NCBI RefSeq assembly: GCF_001434695.1
Contig: NZ_AZDI01000001.1
Coordinates: 33,043 to 57,042 of the forward strand
DNA: 24,000 nt
DNA from: Dellaglioa algida DSM 15638
GTDB taxonomy: Bacteria > Bacillota > Bacilli > Lactobacillales > Lactobacillaceae
Direction: 5' to 3'
Made by a program: the position numbers and the translations under genes. This document shows, piece by piece, positions 2,961 through 18,861 of the stretch; positions within the stretch are counted from its first letter, which is position 1, and each line of letters starts with the position of its first letter. The notes beneath the pieces are model-generated. The model was not told the origin of the DNA. It saw only the letters and a list, made by a program, of their open reading frames with translations, and did not search any database.

Positions 2961-5637
2961 AGTTACAATTTATGGATTTGGAAAATGGCACGATAAGACA
3001 TTTGACTTCAGTCAGACGAATCAAGTTATATTTGGATTAAATGAGGCGGGCAAGTCAACATTAACAACATTTATGTTAAGTATGCTGTTTGGATTTGCTA
3101 CTGCTAAAAAGAAATATCAGCAGTATTTACCTAAAGATGCATCTACATATGGCGGAGAATTAGAGTTATTAGTAGACGGCGTTTCCTACAGATTGACAAG
3201 AACACAGGGGAAATCCGGTGGAAAAGTAACTATTATTAATAATCAGTCCGGTGCGAGAGTCGCAAGTAGTCAATTACAGGAGTGGTTAAAACCAGTGGAT
3301 GAAAATCTGTATAATCAAGTATTTTCATTTAATCAACAGGCGTTGAATCAAGTGTTTGATTTAACGAATGAAGATTTAAATGAATACTTAACGACTATGG
3401 GTGCGGTTGGCAGTCAAGAATGGTTAGAGTTAATTAAACAGATACAAAAAGATGCAGATCAAGTCTATAAGCCGGCTGGTCGAGTAACGGAGTTAAATAA
3501 GGAAATTGCAGCATACAACAATTTAGTTGATAAGATAGATCGGGCTAAACAGAAATTTCCGGAATACGTAACAACGCAGAAAAAACTAGATCAAAATAAT
3601 GAAGAGGTTAAAAAATTACAAGCGGCACAGCAAAAGGTGGCAACGGATAAACAACGTTATGAACAACTAAAACAAAATTGGCCAATTTATGCGCAGTCAA
3701 AAACATTAGCAAATGAGCTAGAAAAAGTTGATGGGAATGAAATGATTTCCGGCGATAATTATCAAACGATGCAAAATTTGTTAGGGAAACAAAAAGTGAA
3801 CGATGAAAGATTAAAATCAATTAATCACAGTGCAACAAGTGAACAAGAGAATTTAGCAGCTTTAAATTTGATCAATTTTTATGAAGATAATCAGGATGCT
3901 TTTGATACATTATTTGTTCGTTTGCCAGAGAACCAACAACGCTTAGACAAAACGTTATTGGAACAGACAAACTTAGATCAACTATTAGCTGAACAAGAAA
4001 GATTAACGATTCAATATCAAAACTCACAGGGAACCATGCCAACAGCGTTTAGTACGGATGATCTTAAAAAAATTGTCGAATTAGTTAAACTTGAAGAAAA
4101 TTATAAAGTAACTTTGCAAAAAGTTGAACAAAAACAATTTGCGAAAAAGCAGGACGTTCTAGAGTTAAATCAAAAAATCAATCAAGAAAATCAACCGAAA
4201 AAAAATAAATGGTCTATACAACAAATGATGATAATGGGTACAATAGATGTTGCAATTGTTCTAGGTATATTGATCTTTAATCCATCAAAATTAATCGGGT
4301 GGCTAGGAACAGTTATAGCAATTGTATATACCATATATGCATTTAAACAGCATAATTTAAAAGGTAATCCGAGTTCATCACAATTAACGCAAGCTCAAAC
4401 TGAGCTTCAGACTATTAGTGCAGAAATCAATGTAGAACAACTGAAAATAGATGAATTAACGGAACAATTGAGGCAGGTTGCGGATGAGTTATCTGATTAT
4501 CAGGCACAATATGGATTAACCAATTTTCCAAAAAACCAATGGATTCCGATGCAAAATGATTTAAATCGACTCGATTCTCTGATGAGCCAAGTTAATCAAA
4601 AATCGATCGAGATTGATAATCTACTAAATTTAATTAATATCTATCTGAATCAGGCAAATTTTGCCGATAGTTTTTTAGCTCTTAATAAAAATAATCTGGC
4701 AGACAGCTTAATTAGAATTAGAGATTTTAATGATAAATTAAAACCATTAATTACTGAATCGCAGTCGATTAAGAATAAAATGAGTTATCTAGATGAGCAA
4801 AAAAAATATGAAAATAAAACACACGATGATATTTCGAATCAAATTAATGAATTATTGGCGCAGTATCAGTTAACGGACGTTAATCAGTTTGAAAAAAATT
4901 ATGATTCACAAAAACAACTTATTCAAGATAAATCTAAGCTAGATACGATTAACGCCCAATTACCTCCAGAAGTTAGAGCAGTACTTGATACATATGAATC
5001 TGAAGAAATTTTGAACGAGCATCTTGTTGAATCCACAGAGCAAGCAGCTCAAATCCAAAATGATATTTTGGATTTAAATCAGACTATTATTGATCAAAAA
5101 ACAACGTTACAAACTTTGAAAGCAGAAGGTAATTATACAGAGCTCCGACAAGATTTGGCTGAAAAAGTAACTGTTTTGAGTGAACTGGCCGATAAATGGT
5201 TAACTCAAAAATTAACGATTAACTGGATTAATGCGGCGCTACAAGATTCGTCTGGTGTTAGAATGCCACAGATGATTAAATTAGCTAACCATTATTTTGA
5301 ATTATTAACACTAGGTCGTTTCAAACAAATAAATAATTCAATGGGATTATTAACCGTCGTTTCTTCTGATATGGTATCATTTGAAGTGGGAGAGTTATCA
5401 CAAGGGACAGCAGAACAGCTTTATATCGCGCTTAGGTTTGCTTTAGTGATGACAATTAATGAATCAATTGAATTACCACTTATTATTGATGATGGATTTG
5501 TTAATTTTGATGAAAATAGAAAAAATGCGGTTCTGCGACTCATACGAGAAATTAGTGAGACAGTTCAGATTATATATCTGACGGCCGATAATTCGGGACT
5601 CGCCGAATTTGATAATGATAAGATAATCAAACTATAG
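2947..5637 (+). CDS. yhaN: SMC/Rad50/SbcC-like ATPase (YhaN, also called SbcE) with long coiled coils and a central hydrophobic hairpin
   Basis: Start chosen at ATG 2947 (MKITKVTIYGFGKW) because GAGGG at 2934-2938 is 8 nt upstream; the track start 2899 and ATG 2941 lack a usable RBS. Motifs: Walker A GLNEAGKST, signature-like LSQGTAEQL, Walker B/D-loop LPLIIDDGFVNFD. About 700 aa of heptad-rich Q/E/K/L sequence lies between the two head halves. Two hydrophobic helices are encoded at nt 4216-4344. Confidence 0.88.
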   Translation: MKITKVTIYGFGKWHDKTFDFSQTNQVIFGLNEAGKSTLTTFMLSMLFGFATAKKKYQQYLPKDASTYGGELELLVDGVSYRLTRTQGKSGGKVTIINNQSGARVASSQLQEWLKPVDENLYNQVFSFNQQALNQVFDLTNEDLNEYLTTMGAVGSQEWLELIKQIQKDADQVYKPAGRVTELNKEIAAYNNLVDKIDRAKQKFPEYVTTQKKLDQNNEEVKKLQAAQQKVATDKQRYEQLKQNWPIYAQSKTLANELEKVDGNEMISGDNYQTMQNLLGKQKVNDERLKSINHSATSEQENLAALNLINFYEDNQDAFDTLFVRLPENQQRLDKTLLEQTNLDQLLAEQERLTIQYQNSQGTMPTAFSTDDLKKIVELVKLEENYKVTLQKVEQKQFAKKQDVLELNQKINQENQPKKNKWSIQQMMIMGTIDVAIVLGILIFNPSKLIGWLGTVIAIVYTIYAFKQHNLKGNPSSSQLTQAQTELQTISAEINVEQLKIDELTEQLRQVADELSDYQAQYGLTNFPKNQWIPMQNDLNRLDSLMSQVNQKSIEIDNLLNLINIYLNQANFADSFLALNKNNLADSLIRIRDFNDKLKPLITESQSIKNKMSYLDEQKKYENKTHDDISNQINELLAQYQLTDVNQFEKNYDSQKQLIQDKSKLDTINAQLPPEVRAVLDTYESEEILNEHLVESTEQAAQIQNDILDLNQTIIDQKTTLQTLKAEGNYTELRQDLAEKVTVLSELADKWLTQKLTINWINAALQDSSGVRMPQMIKLANHYFELLTLGRFKQINNSMGLLTVVSSDMVSFEVGELSQGTAEQLYIALRFALVMTINESIELPLIIDDGFVNFDENRKNAVLRLIREISETVQIIYLTADNSGLAEFDNDKIIKL

Positions 5638-6718: not shown

Positions 6719-7624
6719 TTATTTTGCAGATGATGAAGATGATGATAAGTAACTTGAAAGAACATCTTTTAAGTCTTTATCTTTAATTGACACGTTACCT
6801 TTTTTAAGAACTTTACCAACTATTTTTTGTAATTTAGTTGAGTCAGCCATAGTTTCAGTAACAATTTGTTCTTTTAAGTCAGAAGTATGGTCGGCTTTTT
6901 TACCTTTACCGGCATTCTTAACACTTAAGATAACATCGTAACCTGAGGCTGTCTTAACTGGAGTAGTCGTATATTTACCTTGCTTCAAGTCAAATGCAGC
7001 TTTTTTGAATTCTGCTGTTAATGTTGTATCAGTGTTGTTGAATGGAGATAACGTACCACCAGTACTTGCAGAAGTTGTATCAGTTGATTTTTCTTTAGCT
7101 AATGCAGTAAATTTATCAGTTAACTTCTTAGCAGTTTTTTGTTCATCAAGTTGTTTGATGATATCTTTGGCGTCTGATTCTTTAGCAACTTGAATGCGTT
7201 GAACAGTAATAGTTGGTTGGTAAGCTTCCCATTGTTTATTTACAGCTGAAGTACTTAAGTCACTATAATCTTTAACGGCAGCTTTTAAAAGCAAGTTAGA
7301 ACGTAATTCTGCTTTAAAACTTGTTTTTGTCATGCTGTTTTGTGATAAAACAGATGAAAAACTTGATCCGTATTGAGCTTTATAAGTATCATATTGTTTT
7401 GTAACTTCTTTATCGGAAACGTCTTTACCATATTCTTTTTCCAATACTTTGTTCAAAATCATTTGTTGTAAGATTGATGTACCACTTGACGTTTTCTTCA
7501 AGCTGTCATAGTAAGCACTTTCTGTAACTTTACCACCTGAGGTAGTTGCAACTGTTGAGTTCCCACACCCCGCTAATGTAAATGTTAATAATACGCCGGC
7601 TAAAGCAACAAGCCATTTTTTCAT
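6719..7624 (-). CDS. prsA: Foldase lipoprotein PrsA (parvulin-type peptidyl-prolyl isomerase)
   Basis: Lipoprotein signal [20 protein letters not shown] with lipobox LAGC. Central parvulin-like region. Length and architecture are typical of Bacilli PrsA. The C-terminus ends in [12 protein letters not shown]. Confidence 0.9.
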
Positions 7625-13763: not shown

Positions 13764-13778
13764 TTGGGGGTGATGGCC

Positions 13779-14237
13779 ATGTTTGAGCAAATTTATAAAA
13801 AAGTAATGGTAGGGATTGATGGCAGTGCACAATCTGAGCGTGCATTCAATCAAGCTGTCGATAGCACTTTGAAAAATGAAGCAAGTTTGTTAATCGTACA
13901 CGTTGTGGAACGCAGTGTTGATAATACATTTTCAGAGGACGAGGATGACGTTACGACTGAAGTTAGACGGTTAAATGATACATTGGCCGACTACAAACAA
14001 GTCGCGTTAGATAAGGGTGTCAATCATGTTGAAACGATATTGGCTTATGGGTCTCCTAAAGTGTTATTAAGTCGAGAAATACCAGAAGAAAAACATGTTG
14101 ATTTAATTATGGTTGGTCAAACTGGTGCTAATGCCGTTGAGCGATTTGTGAATGGGTCAACGACGGATGCAATTCTTAGAAATGCGTCTTGTGATGTTTT
14201 AGTCATCAGTGATAAAAAGAAGGGAATTAACAAATAA
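13779..14237 (+). CDS. Universal stress protein (UspA family, ATP-binding subtype)
   Basis: VMVGIDGS N-terminal motif and the G-x2-G-x9-G-S/T motif (GQTGANAVERFVNGST). ATG 13779 is preferred because GGGGG at 13766-13770 is 8 nt upstream. The track TTG 13764 and ATG 13773 are poorly spaced. Confidence 0.85.
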   Translation: MFEQIYKKVMVGIDGSAQSERAFNQAVDSTLKNEASLLIVHVVERSVDNTFSEDEDDVTTEVRRLNDTLADYKQVALDKGVNHVETILAYGSPKVLLSREIPEEKHVDLIMVGQTGANAVERFVNGSTTDAILRNASCDVLVISDKKKGINK

Positions 14238-14239
14238 AT

Positions 14240-14878
14240 ATGTTGATATCAAGTTATAATTTAAAAAATGTTGGTGATACATTAATGGTCGTTTTACGTG
14301 AAGACGTGGAACAACAAAGTTCAGAGTTAAAAAATAATGTTGTTCGTATTTTTGATGGAAAATCAAATATGACTTTAGGATTTAATTTTTTGAAAATTTC
14401 TGAAGCGTTACCCAATTTAATTGGTAACGGACAAGTTTTTTTAACTGAAAATCAGGTTGAAAAATTAAATGAATTAATCGCTTCTGCTGGATTTGATGAT
14501 AAACTGGTTCTTGATGAAGATCCTAAGTTTGTCGTTGGATATGTAGCAGAATCTACGGAACATCCTGATTCTGATCATTTACATGTCACAAAAATTCAAG
14601 TTAACAACAATGAGATGTTAGACATCGTTTGTGGTGCACCTAATATTGAACAAGGCCAACTTGTGGTTGTTGCTAAAGTTGGTGCGATGATGCCAACTGG
14701 TGCTATTATTTGGCCGGGTAAGTTACGTGGAATTGAAAGCTACGGGATGGTCAGTTCAGCTCAAGAATTGGGTATTCCAAATGCGCCCACCGCTCATGGT
14801 ATTCTAGTTTTAGATGATAAGACGAATCATGTTGGCGATGCGTTTGATTTCGAAAAGGTAGCTAGATTATTTGCATAA
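14240..14878 (+). CDS. ytpR: tRNA-binding-domain protein (YtpR / CsaA-Trbp111-like OB fold)
   Basis: The C-terminal OB-fold region (HPDSDHLHVTKIQV...CGAPNI...GIESYGM) is typical of the PheT/CsaA tRNA-binding domain. Size and position upstream of sftA match ytpR. Confidence 0.85.
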   Translation: MLISSYNLKNVGDTLMVVLREDVEQQSSELKNNVVRIFDGKSNMTLGFNFLKISEALPNLIGNGQVFLTENQVEKLNELIASAGFDDKLVLDEDPKFVVGYVAESTEHPDSDHLHVTKIQVNNNEMLDIVCGAPNIEQGQLVVVAKVGAMMPTGAIIWPGKLRGIESYGMVSSAQELGIPNAPTAHGILVLDDKTNHVGDAFDFEKVARLFA

Positions 14879-14890
14879 TATAGATTTATA

Positions 14891-14925
14891 AAAACTAATT
14901 GCAGTTATTGGCAATTAGTTTTTTA
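14891..14925 (+). terminator. Terminator-like hairpin after ytpR
   Basis: AAAACTAATTGC (14891-14902) pairs with GCAATTAGTTTT (14911-14922) around an 8-nt loop, followed by a T-run. An A-run precedes the hairpin. Confidence 0.7.
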
Positions 14926-14944
14926 CATAGTTAGGATGAAATTA

Positions 14945-17449
14945 ATGGAGCGTTATGATGGACCCGCATTTTATAAAAAAACAATAAAAGAAGAGAAAAC
15001 GACGCCTCGTAATGATGATCAATTTATCCGAAAAGAAGCTAAAACGGATAGTCAGAACGAGAAATCACAAATTAATCATTACTCTAGAGGGTTCAGACCA
15101 AAGCAAATACCCACATTCTTTACGAGTAAAAAACAAAATAAAAATGTTAAATATCGTCAACTTTTGGTTCAATTGACAAAAGCGAAAGATACTTATTTGT
15201 TGTTTGATGATCAAGCTGATAATTACTTTAGTGAAGGGACTGTTGAGTTACCACTTCATGCTGATTTAAGCACAACTGATGACGCAGCTAGTGAGAGTTT
15301 GGTATCACCAAATGAAGTTATACCGGTTGTTGAAAAAAGAGTGGTACAGAACGAGTTCTTGGCGAATATGACGCCAATACCTGAAGTTACGCCTATAGTA
15401 GATGTGACTCCAAAAATAGTTGCTAATAACAAACATGCATTAGCTAGGGGTCTATTTGAGATCACTAATTCTGAAAATGAAGCTCAAAAAGAGCTTGCTG
15501 TATTTAAAGATAAACCTGAAGTTTCATCACGAGAAGAACTTGCATCTGTTGGAACTGATTATCAAACTAAACAAGAAGTACAAGAAGTACAAGAAGTACA
15601 AGAAGTACAAGAAGTACAAGAAGTACAAGAAGTACAAGAAGTACAAGAAGTACAAGAAGTACAAGAAGTACAAGAAGTACAAGAAGTACAAGAAGTACAA
15701 GAAGTACAAGAAGTACAAGAAGTACAAGAAGTACAAGAAGTACAAGAAGTACAAGAAGTACAAGAAGTACAAGAAGTACAAGAAGTACAAGAAGTACAAG
15801 AAGTACAAGAAGTACAAGAAGTACAAGAAGTACAAGAAGTACAAGAAGTACAAGAAGTACAAGAAGTACAAGAAGTACAAGAAGTACAAGAAGTACAAGA
15901 AGTACAAGAAGTACAAGAAGTACAAGAAGTACAAGAAGTACAAGAAGTACAAGAAGTACAAGAAGTACAAGAAGTACAAGAAGGTTATTACGATGACCAG
16001 TCTGATGAAGAAATAGTAATTGCAGATGCGACTTATCAATTTCCATCCCTTGATTTATTACCAGATCCTATCTTAGAGAATGCTGGCGAATTAGATGAGT
16101 GGGTACTTTCTCAAATTGATGTATTGAATAATACATTAGAGGCGTTCCATGTGAACGCAGAAGTTGATGGATGGACAGTTGGACCTACTGTTACACAATT
16201 CGAAATTTCACTAGCTGCCGGTGTTAAGGTAAGTAAGATTACTAATCTTGTTGACGATTTGAAGTTGGCATTAGCCGCAAAGGATATTCGTGTGGAAGCG
16301 CCAATTCCTGGACGGAGCAGTGTCGGAATCGAAATTCCTAATTTGAAATCGAGACCGGTTCTCCTTTCTGAAGTATTGAGATCTGCAGTCTTTATGGAAA
16401 ATAAATCACCGCTAACGGTTGCCTTAGGTGTTGATTTATTTGGTGAAGCACAAGTAACTAATCTACAAAAAATGCCGCATGGATTGATTGCTGGAGCTAC
16501 AGGTTCCGGTAAATCAGTTTTTATTAATAGTTTGCTAGTTTCTATTCTATATAAAGCAACGCCTAATGAGGTTAAGCTTTTATTAATTGATCCTAAGGCA
16601 GTCGAGTTAGCACCATATCATGATATTCCACATCTATTGGCACCAGTTATTTCAGACGCAAAAGCAGCTTCAGCAGCATTGAAGTGGGCTGTTGATGAGA
16701 TGGAAGAACGTTATCAAAAATTAGCTGCTGCCGGTGCTAAAAATATTGGTAACTTTAATCAAAAAGCGGAAGCAAATGGTGATTTTGGCTTAAAAATGCC
16801 ATATATTTTAATTATTATTGATGAGTTAGCCGATTTAATGATGGTTGCTTCAAATGAAGTGCAGGATTATATCGCTAGAATCACGCAAAAAGCTAGGGCA
16901 GCAGGAATTCATTTGATTCTTGCGACGCAGCGTCCAAGCGTTGATGTTGTCACAGGAACGATTAAAAATAACATTCCAACCCGAATAGCATTTATGGTTT
17001 CTAGTCAAATTGATTCAAGAACAATCTTAGATACTGCTGGTGCTGAAAAATTACTGGGTCGAGGAGATATGCTATATCTCGGTAATGGATCGAGTCAAGC
17101 TGTTAGATTGCAGGGAACATACATTGAAGATGAAGTTGATTTAATTACGGATTTTGTCAGAACGCAAGGGAAACCAAGATACGCATTTAATCCGGATGGA
17201 TTGAAGAAAATGGCAGATCAAAATGAACAACAGGATGATTTGCTTCCAGGTATTTTAGATTTTATAGCACATGAACAGACGATTTCAATTTCTAAGTTAC
17301 AACGTGTTTTCTCAATAGGTTATAACAGGGCTGCGAATATTATTGATGAGCTTGAGAACCAACAACATATTTCGCATGCTAAGGGTTCAAAGCCACGAGA
17401 TGTCTATTTAAATGAAGATGAGCTCAGACGAATGAGAGAAGAATTTTAA
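14945..17449 (+). CDS. sftA: FtsK/SpoIIIE-family DNA translocase lacking transmembrane segments (SftA-type), with a (QEV)45 linker
   Basis: Motor motifs: PSLDLL motor entry (from about nt 16034), Walker A GATGSGKS, Walker B IIIDELADL, RPS motif ATQRPSVDV. The C-terminal winged-helix gamma domain reads ISKLQRVFSIGYNRAANIIDELE. No hydrophobic N-terminal helices are present. Its position between ytpR and murC equals B. subtilis sftA. ATG 14945 is preferred (AGGA 8 nt upstream) over ATG 14936, which overlaps the RBS. Confidence 0.9.
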   Translation: MERYDGPAFYKKTIKEEKTTPRNDDQFIRKEAKTDSQNEKSQINHYSRGFRPKQIPTFFTSKKQNKNVKYRQLLVQLTKAKDTYLLFDDQADNYFSEGTVELPLHADLSTTDDAASESLVSPNEVIPVVEKRVVQNEFLANMTPIPEVTPIVDVTPKIVANNKHALARGLFEITNSENEAQKELAVFKDKPEVSSREELASVGTDYQTKQEVQEVQEVQEVQEVQEVQEVQEVQEVQEVQEVQEVQEVQEVQEVQEVQEVQEVQEVQEVQEVQEVQEVQEVQEVQEVQEVQEVQEVQEVQEVQEVQEVQEVQEVQEVQEVQEVQEVQEVQEVQEVQEVQEVQEVQEGYYDDQSDEEIVIADATYQFPSLDLLPDPILENAGELDEWVLSQIDVLNNTLEAFHVNAEVDGWTVGPTVTQFEISLAAGVKVSKITNLVDDLKLALAAKDIRVEAPIPGRSSVGIEIPNLKSRPVLLSEVLRSAVFMENKSPLTVALGVDLFGEAQVTNLQKMPHGLIAGATGSGKSVFINSLLVSILYKATPNEVKLLLIDPKAVELAPYHDIPHLLAPVISDAKAASAALKWAVDEMEERYQKLAAAGAKNIGNFNQKAEANGDFGLKMPYILIIIDELADLMMVASNEVQDYIARITQKARAAGIHLILATQRPSVDVVTGTIKNNIPTRIAFMVSSQIDSRTILDTAGAEKLLGRGDMLYLGNGSSQAVRLQGTYIEDEVDLITDFVRTQGKPRYAFNPDGLKKMADQNEQQDDLLPGILDFIAHEQTISISKLQRVFSIGYNRAANIIDELENQQHISHAKGSKPRDVYLNEDELRRMREEF
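15572..15983 (+). repeat. Perfect tandem repeat: 9-bp unit CAAGAAGTA x45 plus a 7-nt partial copy, in frame within sftA
   Basis: Counted from the sequence: the first unit is 15572-15580 and the last full unit is 15968-15976, so 405 bp divided by 9 gives 45 units. No substitution is visible, and a partial CAAGAAG occupies 15977-15983. All six frames are open across the array. Confidence 0.97.
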
Positions 17450-17529: not shown

Positions 17530-18861
17530 ATGAATAATCAAAAAGTATATTACTTTGTAGGAATAAAAGGCTCAGGGATGAGTTCTTTAGCCTTAATTTT
17601 ACACGATCAGGGCTTTAAAGTTGAAGGGTCTGATATTGATCAATATACGTTCACACAACGTGGATTAGAGTTGGCAGGAATTAAGGTCTATTCATTTGAT
17701 GAAAATAATATGCATGAAGGATTGACTGTAATCGCAGGTAACGCGTTTACCGCAGATCATCCTGAACTTAAAAAAGCGCGTGAAATGGGATTAGATATCG
17801 TTAGCTATCCTGAAATGTTGAGCTGTCTAATGGAAGGTTACACAAGTATTGGTGTAGCCGGATCACATGGTAAAACAAGTACAACGGGACTTCTTGCGCA
17901 TGTCCTTAGTGGTATTGCACCAACAAGTTACTTGATTGGTGATGGTACCGGTAAAGGGAAACCAGACGCAAGATTCTTTGTTTATGAAGCTGATGAATAT
18001 CGTCGTCATTTCGTTGCTTATCATCCCGATTATTCAATTATGACTAATATTGATTTTGATCATCCCGATTATTTTACCGGTATAGATGATGTTTTCGATG
18101 CCTTTGAAACTGTTGCAAAACAAACGAAAAAAGGTATTTTCGCTTGGGGAGATGACCCATTACTTCGCAAAATAAAAGCTGATGTACCAATTTATTACTA
18201 TGGAACAAAGGATTCTGATGATTTTCAAGCTCGTGATATTAAACGGACGACTAAGGGTTCAGAATTCGACGTTTTCTATCATGATGAACCTTTAGGTCAT
18301 TACCAAATCCCTATCTTTGGGGAACACAACATTTTGAATAGTTTAGCCGTTATCGCTGTTTCACATTTTGAAAAAGTTGATTTGGAAGAGATTGCAAAAG
18401 AATTATTAAGTTTTAAAGGTGTTAAACGTCGTTTTAGTGAAAAATATATTGGTGATATGACAATTATTGATGATTATGCACATCATCCATCAGAAATTAA
18501 AGCAACAATTGATGCCGCACGTCAAAAATATCCTGATAAAGAATTAATTGCTGTTTTCCAACCACATACTTTTAGTAGAACGATTGCGTTAATGGATGAT
18601 TTTGCGGTTAGTTTAAATCTTGCCGATAAAGTTTATTTAACTGACATTTTTAGCTCAGCTCGCGAAACGTCAGGAAATGTTTCCAGTGAAGATCTGGGTG
18701 CCAAAATTGTTAAGGGTGGTGATATTATTAAACTTGATAATATTTCGCCATTACTGGATTATAGTAACGCAGTGGTTATCTTCATGGGTGCCGGTGATGT
18801 TCAAAAATATGAATATGCTTACGAAGAGTTATTGAGTAATTTAAGTTTTAAAAATAATTAA
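17530..18861 (+). CDS. murC: UDP-N-acetylmuramate--L-alanine ligase MurC
   Basis: N-terminal [14 protein letters not shown] and Mur ligase P-loop [13 protein letters not shown]. Start moved to ATG 17530 (MNNQKVYYF), with AGAGGA 5 nt upstream; the track start 17509 lacks an RBS. Confidence 0.92.

Follow-up and report, generated by a model that had tools for sequence, protein, structure and literature searches.

The window analyzed here is a 24,000-nt stretch of Dellaglioa algida DSM 15638 (GCF_001434695.1, contig NZ_AZDI01000001.1, positions 33,043 to 57,042 of the forward strand). It contains an sftA-type DNA translocase gene whose linker-coding region carries a long array of a 9-bp unit, CAAGAAGTA. 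By direct read, window positions 15572-15976 hold 45 identical, uninterrupted copies of this unit, followed by CAAGAAG. Tandem Repeats Finder placed the array at 15571-15983, with a period of 9, 45.9 head-to-tail copies, 100% matches, 0 indels and a score of 826; the exact period-9 stretch covers the same positions and is 413 nt long. This was the sole tandem repeat that the program reported in the 24-kb window, and chance origin is not a viable explanation for it. The array is in frame within the open reading frame (ORF) 14936-17449 and is translated as QEV 45 times, then QEG, which corresponds to amino acids 210-344 in the 834-aa numbering used below. An initial annotation, made from the sequence of the window, had described 45 perfect 9-bp copies encoding QEV in frame, and the direct read, Tandem Repeats Finder and the translation agree with that description. 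The 7-nt partial copy that it placed at the end of the array is present in the window but unique to it, as the other assemblies have a 5-nt partial copy (QDS). ORFs with KKY, FLY and LLV repeats in other frames or strands are mechanical by-products of the QEV repeat.

The features of the locus, in window coordinates, are as follows.

15572..15976, + strand: probable variable number of tandem repeats (VNTR) locus, 45 x CAAGAAGTA encoding (QEV)45 (direct read, Tandem Repeats Finder, translation, assembly comparison).
15977..15985, + strand: terminal degenerate unit, CAAGAAGGT (QEG) in the window and CAAGACAGT (QDS) in all other assemblies.
14945..17449, + strand: sftA-type DNA translocase gene, 834 aa plus stop (ORF list, homologue N-termini, AGGA, sister-contig gene calls).
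14945..15229, + strand: conserved N-terminal module, approximately residues 1-95 (MERYDGPAFY..., F-x-P...P motif, YLLFDD; 50-homologue alignment).
15230..15571, + strand: non-repetitive, poorly conserved part of the linker, P/E/V/T-rich, with PEV- and PKxV-like motifs (no conserved columns; AlphaFold predicted local distance difference test score (pLDDT) <50).
16040..16342, + strand: FtsK alpha domain (PF17854, E = 3.9e-29; residues 369-469 of ORF 14936-17449).
16364..16942, + strand: FtsK/SpoIIIE ATPase (beta) domain with Walker A GATGSGKS (PF01580, E = 9.7e-66; residues 477-669 of the ORF).
17228..17410, + strand: FtsK gamma domain, winged-helix, DNA-sequence-reading (PF09397, E = 5.9e-21; residues 765-825 of the ORF).
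14240..14878, + strand: ytpR, tRNA-binding protein with DUF4479, the upstream synteny anchor (Pfam DUF4479 and tRNA_bind; exact protein named YtpR family, Dellaglioa algida, with the type strain DSM 15638 among its sources).
17530..18861, + strand: murC, the downstream synteny anchor (three Mur ligase domains; 443-aa product with an exact match in sister contigs).

The protein encoded at the locus has the alpha domain, the beta domain with Walker motifs and the gamma domain of the FtsK/SpoIIIE family. Its motor matches the FtsK motors 2IUS, 2IUT and 2IUU in the PDB (E. coli, P. aeruginosa) with E values of 7e-123 to 5e-111, and GATGSGKS is invariant in the homologue alignment. Within the first 365 residues, the maximum Kyte-Doolittle 19-residue mean is 0.77, compared to a usual threshold of ~1.6. 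Because this part of the protein has no hydrophobic segment, it is, judged from its sequence, a soluble, SftA-type paralogue of the FtsK family. The gene order in the window is M42 peptidase, thioredoxin, Usp, ytpR, sftA, murC, Bax1-I protein, polA, and sftA thus occupies the same ytpR-sftA-murC position as in Bacillus. We surveyed 80 sftA orthologue loci, among the matches listed, from Bacillaceae, Listeria and Lactobacillaceae (none of them Dellaglioa); murC lies downstream in 79 of these, and ytpR lies at most 5 kb upstream in 26. The three domains, the absence of a hydrophobic segment and the synteny bear out the earlier assignment to an SftA/FtsK-type translocase. The motor had been proposed to start near 16034, which matches the Pfam FtsK_alpha domain at 16040-16342, and the array does lie in the linker, between the conserved N-terminal module and the motor.

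The sequence AGGA at 14933-14936 lies 8 nt ahead of the ATG at 14945, homologues start with MEHYDGPAF, and gene calls in sister contigs begin at the base equivalent to 14945. Since these three lines agree, the true start is probably ATG 14945, giving a protein of 834 rather than 837 aa; the upstream ATG at 14936, which overlaps the ribosome-binding site, is an improbable start codon. Exact-product look-ups of the 837-aa ORF and of a 450-aa MurC ORF returned no match, while those of YtpR and the 443-aa MurC did. Between ytpR and sftA, a terminator-like hairpin spans 14891-14924 (AAAACTAATTGC / GCAATTAGTTTT, then a T run).

Alignment of 50 Lactobacillaceae homologues revealed near-invariant columns M1, Y4, D5, G6, P7, A8, F9, F50, P52 and P56 in the N-terminal module. 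In B. subtilis SftA, SepF and FtsA mediate targeting to the Z-ring by the first 61-67 residues, and membrane binding is due to an amphipathic helix at the N-terminus (PMC9320952, PMC5357621). By analogy, we presume that the Dellaglioa module is the septum- and membrane-targeting part. The module had no tblastn match in the 80 listed loci from other Bacilli, and AlphaFold confidence in this region was low. The linker that follows (residues 96-363) has a net charge of -62 and no conserved columns in the alignment.

To compare strains, allele lengths were read from contigs, as the Dellaglioa SftA proteins are apparently missing from the protein collection. Searching for exact matches to MurC and to variants of YtpR yielded ~30 contigs, which belong to D. 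algida and D. carnosa. The contig tables hold no Pfam record for Dellaglioa SftA, though the contigs are present, and the collection may omit highly repetitive proteins or index them poorly. The contigs carry two types of allele, pure QEV and mixed PEV/QEV. Mixed alleles have the form QEV-PKV-(PEV)n-(QEV)m-QDS, with 4-6 PEV and 4-10 QEV units at the loci that are spanned, as listed here.

L081: PEV 6, QEV 10, spanned.
L083: PEV 4, plus 2 units with N at the Q/P base, QEV 9, spanned.
L084: PEV 4, QEV 4, spanned.
L101: PEV 5, QEV at least 6, contig ends.

After PKV, the three spanned alleles contain 16 (L081), 15 (L083) and 8 (L084) repeat units and thus differ from one another by 1-8 units. In 10 kb of flanking sequence, no difference separates L081 from L083, and 3 positions set L084 apart. 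The unit counts of these mixed alleles are probably reliable because their exact-period stretches (48-102 nt) are shorter than the 132 nt at which, as described below, pure arrays collapse. With differences of 1-8 units against 0-3 flank differences per 10 kb, copy number appears to outpace point substitution, and we therefore classify the array in the sftA linker, on this comparison, as a VNTR. The initial annotation had anticipated copy-number variation with constant flanks, and L081, L083 and L084 display it.

In L083, the base that distinguishes Gln from Pro is N in two successive units where the PEV block meets the QEV block (7387-7404; CNAGAAGTA), which may reflect read heterogeneity within the isolate. 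The Usp gene upstream of ytpR, intact in the window (13764-14237, 152-157 aa), is called as two pieces of 37-39 and 110-116 aa in the mixed-allele lineage (L081 5535-5998; L083, L085, L087, L101), which suggests a frameshift or pseudogene there.

The pure QEV array is harder to count. Logan contigs (k=31) stop after exactly 30 periodic bases (L088, L091, L095, L098, L100, L149), other contigs end after 60-136 periodic bases (L086, L094, L102, L104, L150), and a metagenome scaffold has a 100-N gap inside the QEV array (L148, 4896-4995), at which the gene caller split sftA into fragments. Exactly 14 units, in a 132-nt periodic stretch, are found in three diverged strains (L082/L090, with the array at L082 7333-7458; L092; L093), and further places also show 14 units. 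In our interpretation, a de Bruijn graph with k=127 cannot output a right-phase stretch shorter than 132 nt, and 14 is a collapsed lower bound. Public short-read assemblies of Dellaglioa thus probably under-report the length of sftA. The 9 pure QEV units of L147 may be genuine or collapsed.

The L082/L090 contig (GCA_030127535.1) equals the window on both sides of the array, for 7,332 bp upstream of it and for 8,024 bp downstream. Over these 15.3 kb, the sole base differences are 2 adjacent bases at the 3′ junction of the array (15982-15983), in addition to copy number. It is very likely that the two are the same strain and that the assembly method used for the window spanned the array. Short-read graphs require an array of at least ~127 nt in the identical-flank strain and in two others (85-148 differences per 10 kb), and one short-read contig reaches at least 15 units. 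Because the identical-flank assembly shows the minimum 132-nt stretch for k=127 and other contigs break in the array, the array appears to be truly long in the strain of the window. The caution that an assembly artefact might be at work, raised at the outset, was well founded, but it applies mainly to short-read assemblies, with their contig ends, N gaps and 14-copy collapse.

Besides the lineage of the window, pure QEV alleles were found in D. carnosa-type genomes and in two further lineages of D. algida, whose flanks show 85-148 differences per 10 kb. In the D. carnosa-type loci (L102, L104, L147), the flanks are ~95% identical to those of the window and the identical unit is found at the same codon. 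Units evolving independently at ~5% divergence should differ between the species and within the array; the identity of the units therefore indicates concerted evolution by frequent gain and loss. In the mixed alleles, the PEV variant (CAA to CCA, Q to P, a single A-to-C change) has spread as a block. Slippage and homogenization had been put forward as the cause of the purity, and both the shared unit in the sister species and the spread of the PEV block are in line with this. One of the D. carnosa-type loci (L147, GCA_007922695.1) has a YtpR labelled D. algida, yet its flanks are ~94.8% identical to the window, as in D. carnosa; its species label may be out of date.

Repeats in this part of the gene are not confined to Dellaglioa. 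At 35 of the 80 listed loci, the N-terminal/linker coding part contains tandem repeats of at least 3 copies. Every one has a period divisible by 3; copy number reaches 21, and purity ranges over 60-100%. The part examined lies ~0.3-2.7 kb upstream of the motor match, mostly at locus positions 3000-5000. Repeat density in this part is 24-fold above that of the remaining 783 kb of the listed loci. The sftA linker thus appears to be a family-wide hot spot for in-frame repeats across Bacilli, of which we found no earlier description. As the units are unrelated, the arrays of the orthologues would have arisen independently.

Protein-level searches gave a sparser picture. Among the best 120 protein homologues, one has a perfect tandem repeat of at least 12 residues (VQEKP x4). 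A search with the whole protein found relatives at most 76% identical in the motor, with lengths of 607-978 aa and a constant motor size, and a query with the N-terminal part found a single partial Dellaglioa protein. A scan of metagenomes for the 3′ junction of the array had no match. The 9-mer CAAGAAGTA itself also forms runs of 4 to 14 units in 42 unrelated contigs of metagenomes, none of them Dellaglioa. In three of the contigs recovered (L117, with 14 units on the minus strand; L142; L118), (QEV)5-14 encoded by the identical 9-mer precedes a membrane protein (...ARLCKSFKEDGLLWIIGALFAFWP...), which may be another VNTR-bearing family.

Taken together, the locus is probably a genuine intragenic minisatellite, namely an in-frame VNTR of the D. 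algida gene for the soluble septal translocase SftA, in whose disordered and strongly acidic linker it lies. We propose that the 9-bp unit (3 codons) would be gained and lost via replication slippage or unequal sister-strand recombination. As the unit is a multiple of 3, such changes would keep the frame; what they would alter is solely how long a spacer separates the hexameric motor from the N-terminal targeting module. Every allele seen keeps the frame and the motor ORF, in agreement with the frame-neutral length change that had been predicted. By the comparison of genomes, frequent gain and loss homogenizes the array, which stays without substitutions across the species split, and variants such as CAA to CCA spread as blocks. 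Since the linker tolerates very different lengths and runs of proline, it would act as a flexible, negatively charged tether and not as a folded part of the protein, and the majority of changes in its length would probably be neutral or almost so.

Several points weigh against this interpretation. The value of 45, the only real estimate for the pure allele, comes from one assembly; the short-read counts for pure QEV alleles (9, 14 and bounds of at most 15) are lower bounds or possibly collapsed. At its 3′ junction, the window reads CAAGAAGGT where every other assembly reads CAAGACAGT, including three data sets with otherwise identical flanks over 15 kb, and this may be a consensus or polishing error or a very recent change. 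AlphaFold2 predicts a helix for the array, which does not fit a purely disordered tether. Finally, near-neutrality is an interpretation of ours, and selection, too, could explain why two species retain the array.

Selection is the core of the alternative that, though unlikely, fares best. It holds that the array is an adaptive tuning knob or molecular ruler, its selected length setting the reach of the motor from the Z-ring or membrane anchor, and that slippage supplies heritable, reversible variation in the efficiency of chromosome clearing, e.g., at the low growth temperatures of a psychrotroph. Two species keep the array at the same codon, it lies exactly between the targeting module and the motor, and it has counterparts across the family; by textbook rise per residue, its 135 residues would measure ~20 nm as a helix and ~45-50 nm when extended. 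However, relaxed constraint alone predicts recurrent repeats equally well, and both length and sequence of the linker are very free across orthologues. In the only published swap of such alleles, an 84-bp repeat indel in the ftsK linker of Salmonella was exchanged between strains with no change of phenotype in the assay used, survival in egg white (PMC6137255). We regard as improbable the broader proposal that SftA linkers in general, that of Dellaglioa being the extreme, are length-selected entropic tethers, whose minisatellites would set how far the DNA pump lies from its Z-ring anchor in a heritable and rapidly reversible way. If true, it would imply subpopulations that differ in chromosome clearing, e.g., during slow growth in the cold.

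It is also doubtful, to a high degree, that the repeat exists but owes its length, and perhaps its purity, to assembly or polishing. Common short reads fall short of the length of the array, every short-read assembly fails at the locus, and the 2-base difference from the three identical-flank data sets makes the 3′ junction more repeat-like. Against this, short-read graphs independently need at least ~127 nt in three strains, with one contig at 15 units or more, the frame is preserved and the ORF intact; moreover, assembly errors normally add impurities or collapse repeats and do not create 45 perfect in-frame units.

A structured spacer, in which (QEV)n forms a long single alpha-helix or coiled-coil rod that fixes the distance of the motor, is very unlikely as well. 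Single-sequence AlphaFold2 modelling of residues 1-470 drew the array as one continuous helix (residues 203-347, 145 residues, block pLDDT ~60-73). This helix deserves little weight because the model was made without an alignment (predicted template modelling score, pTM, 0.21), the array has no basic residues and a hydrophobic residue at every third position, and natural alleles bear proline. AlphaFold2 tends to draw helices for E/Q-rich repeats. With no Lys or Arg, i to i+4 salt bridges cannot form, and the charge of the array alone amounts to -45; the 3-4 heptad spacing of coiled coils does not accord with hydrophobic residues spaced three apart. The natural alleles replace 5-7 consecutive units with the proline-containing PKV and PEV. 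An assignment to the single alpha-helix (SAH/ER-K) domains was rejected for an array of Q, E and V only, in a linker with a charge of -62.

Other candidates were readily dismissed: a phase-variable on/off contingency locus is at odds with a 9-bp unit and with the frame and intact motor ORF of every allele seen; simple replication slippage would suffice without DNA secondary structure as a driver, as the GTAC palindrome gives 4-bp hairpins that are too weak (-13 kcal/mol over 135 nt); and founder-unit amplification is favored over codon selection because GTA is a minor Val codon here (17%).

If the locus is the in-frame VNTR that we propose, it offers immediate use as a highly discriminating marker for typing D. 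algida and D. carnosa, which are spoilage organisms of chilled meat. It is also an assembly trap, at which short-read assemblies break or silently report 14 copies. The natural allelic series, which comprises alleles with proline and others lacking it and extends from 8 units to at least 45, lends itself to asking whether the length of the linker matters in a septal translocase. None of these findings overturns current understanding, and we consider their general interest moderate to low.

Compared to known systems, the window protein most resembles B. subtilis SftA (YtpS/YtpT) and the soluble 'FtsK' of S. aureus, which likewise have an alpha/beta/gamma motor and no transmembrane helices; the B. 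subtilis gene lies between ytpR and murC, as in the window. Unlike these proteins, the Dellaglioa linker carries a perfect 45-unit minisatellite, and to our knowledge no minisatellite of such kind has been reported for either model protein. The Dellaglioa N-terminal module also differs from the B. subtilis type, showing no tblastn similarity to the Bacillus-type listed loci. In composition, the linker is reminiscent of titin PEVK-type entropic-spring linkers, in which short periodic units of P, E, V, K and Q are presumed to form a flexible charged spacer; this likeness implies no homology, as host protein and organism are different. SftA and soluble FtsK proteins share an N-terminal targeting part, a variable linker and the motor (PMC9320952, PMC5357621, PMC10233372).

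The ftsK linker repeat of Salmonella Enteritidis is the locus SENTR2 of MLVA (multilocus analysis of variable-number tandem repeats), 39 bp x 9.3 (PMC2430564). Like the Dellaglioa array, it is an in-frame linker repeat of an FtsK-family translocase with polymorphic copy number that is usable for typing (PMC2430564, PMC6137255). SENTR2 has a 39-bp (or 42-bp) unit in ~9 imperfect copies within the Pro/Gln-rich linker of a membrane-anchored FtsK, whereas the Dellaglioa array has a 9-bp unit in 45 perfect copies within the Glu/Gln/Val linker of a soluble SftA.

Closer still are the sftA arrays of other Bacilli, such as those of Lacticaseibacillus parakribbianus (15 bp x 8.5), Bacillus manliponensis (54 bp x 21) and Niallia sp. 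(27 bp x 21), which occupy the same position in the protein and, as in Dellaglioa, have periods divisible by 3 and E/Q/V/P/T-rich units. Among the listed loci, these arrays are mostly 70-96% pure with at most 21 copies, and one other is perfect, with 8.5 copies. The initial annotation had implied that the array was unique; in kind it is not, given the 35 listed loci with repeats and the Salmonella MLVA locus, but it is the longest and purest in the sample. We therefore view the Dellaglioa array as a new, extreme case of a known kind, with the most copies and the highest purity among those sampled.

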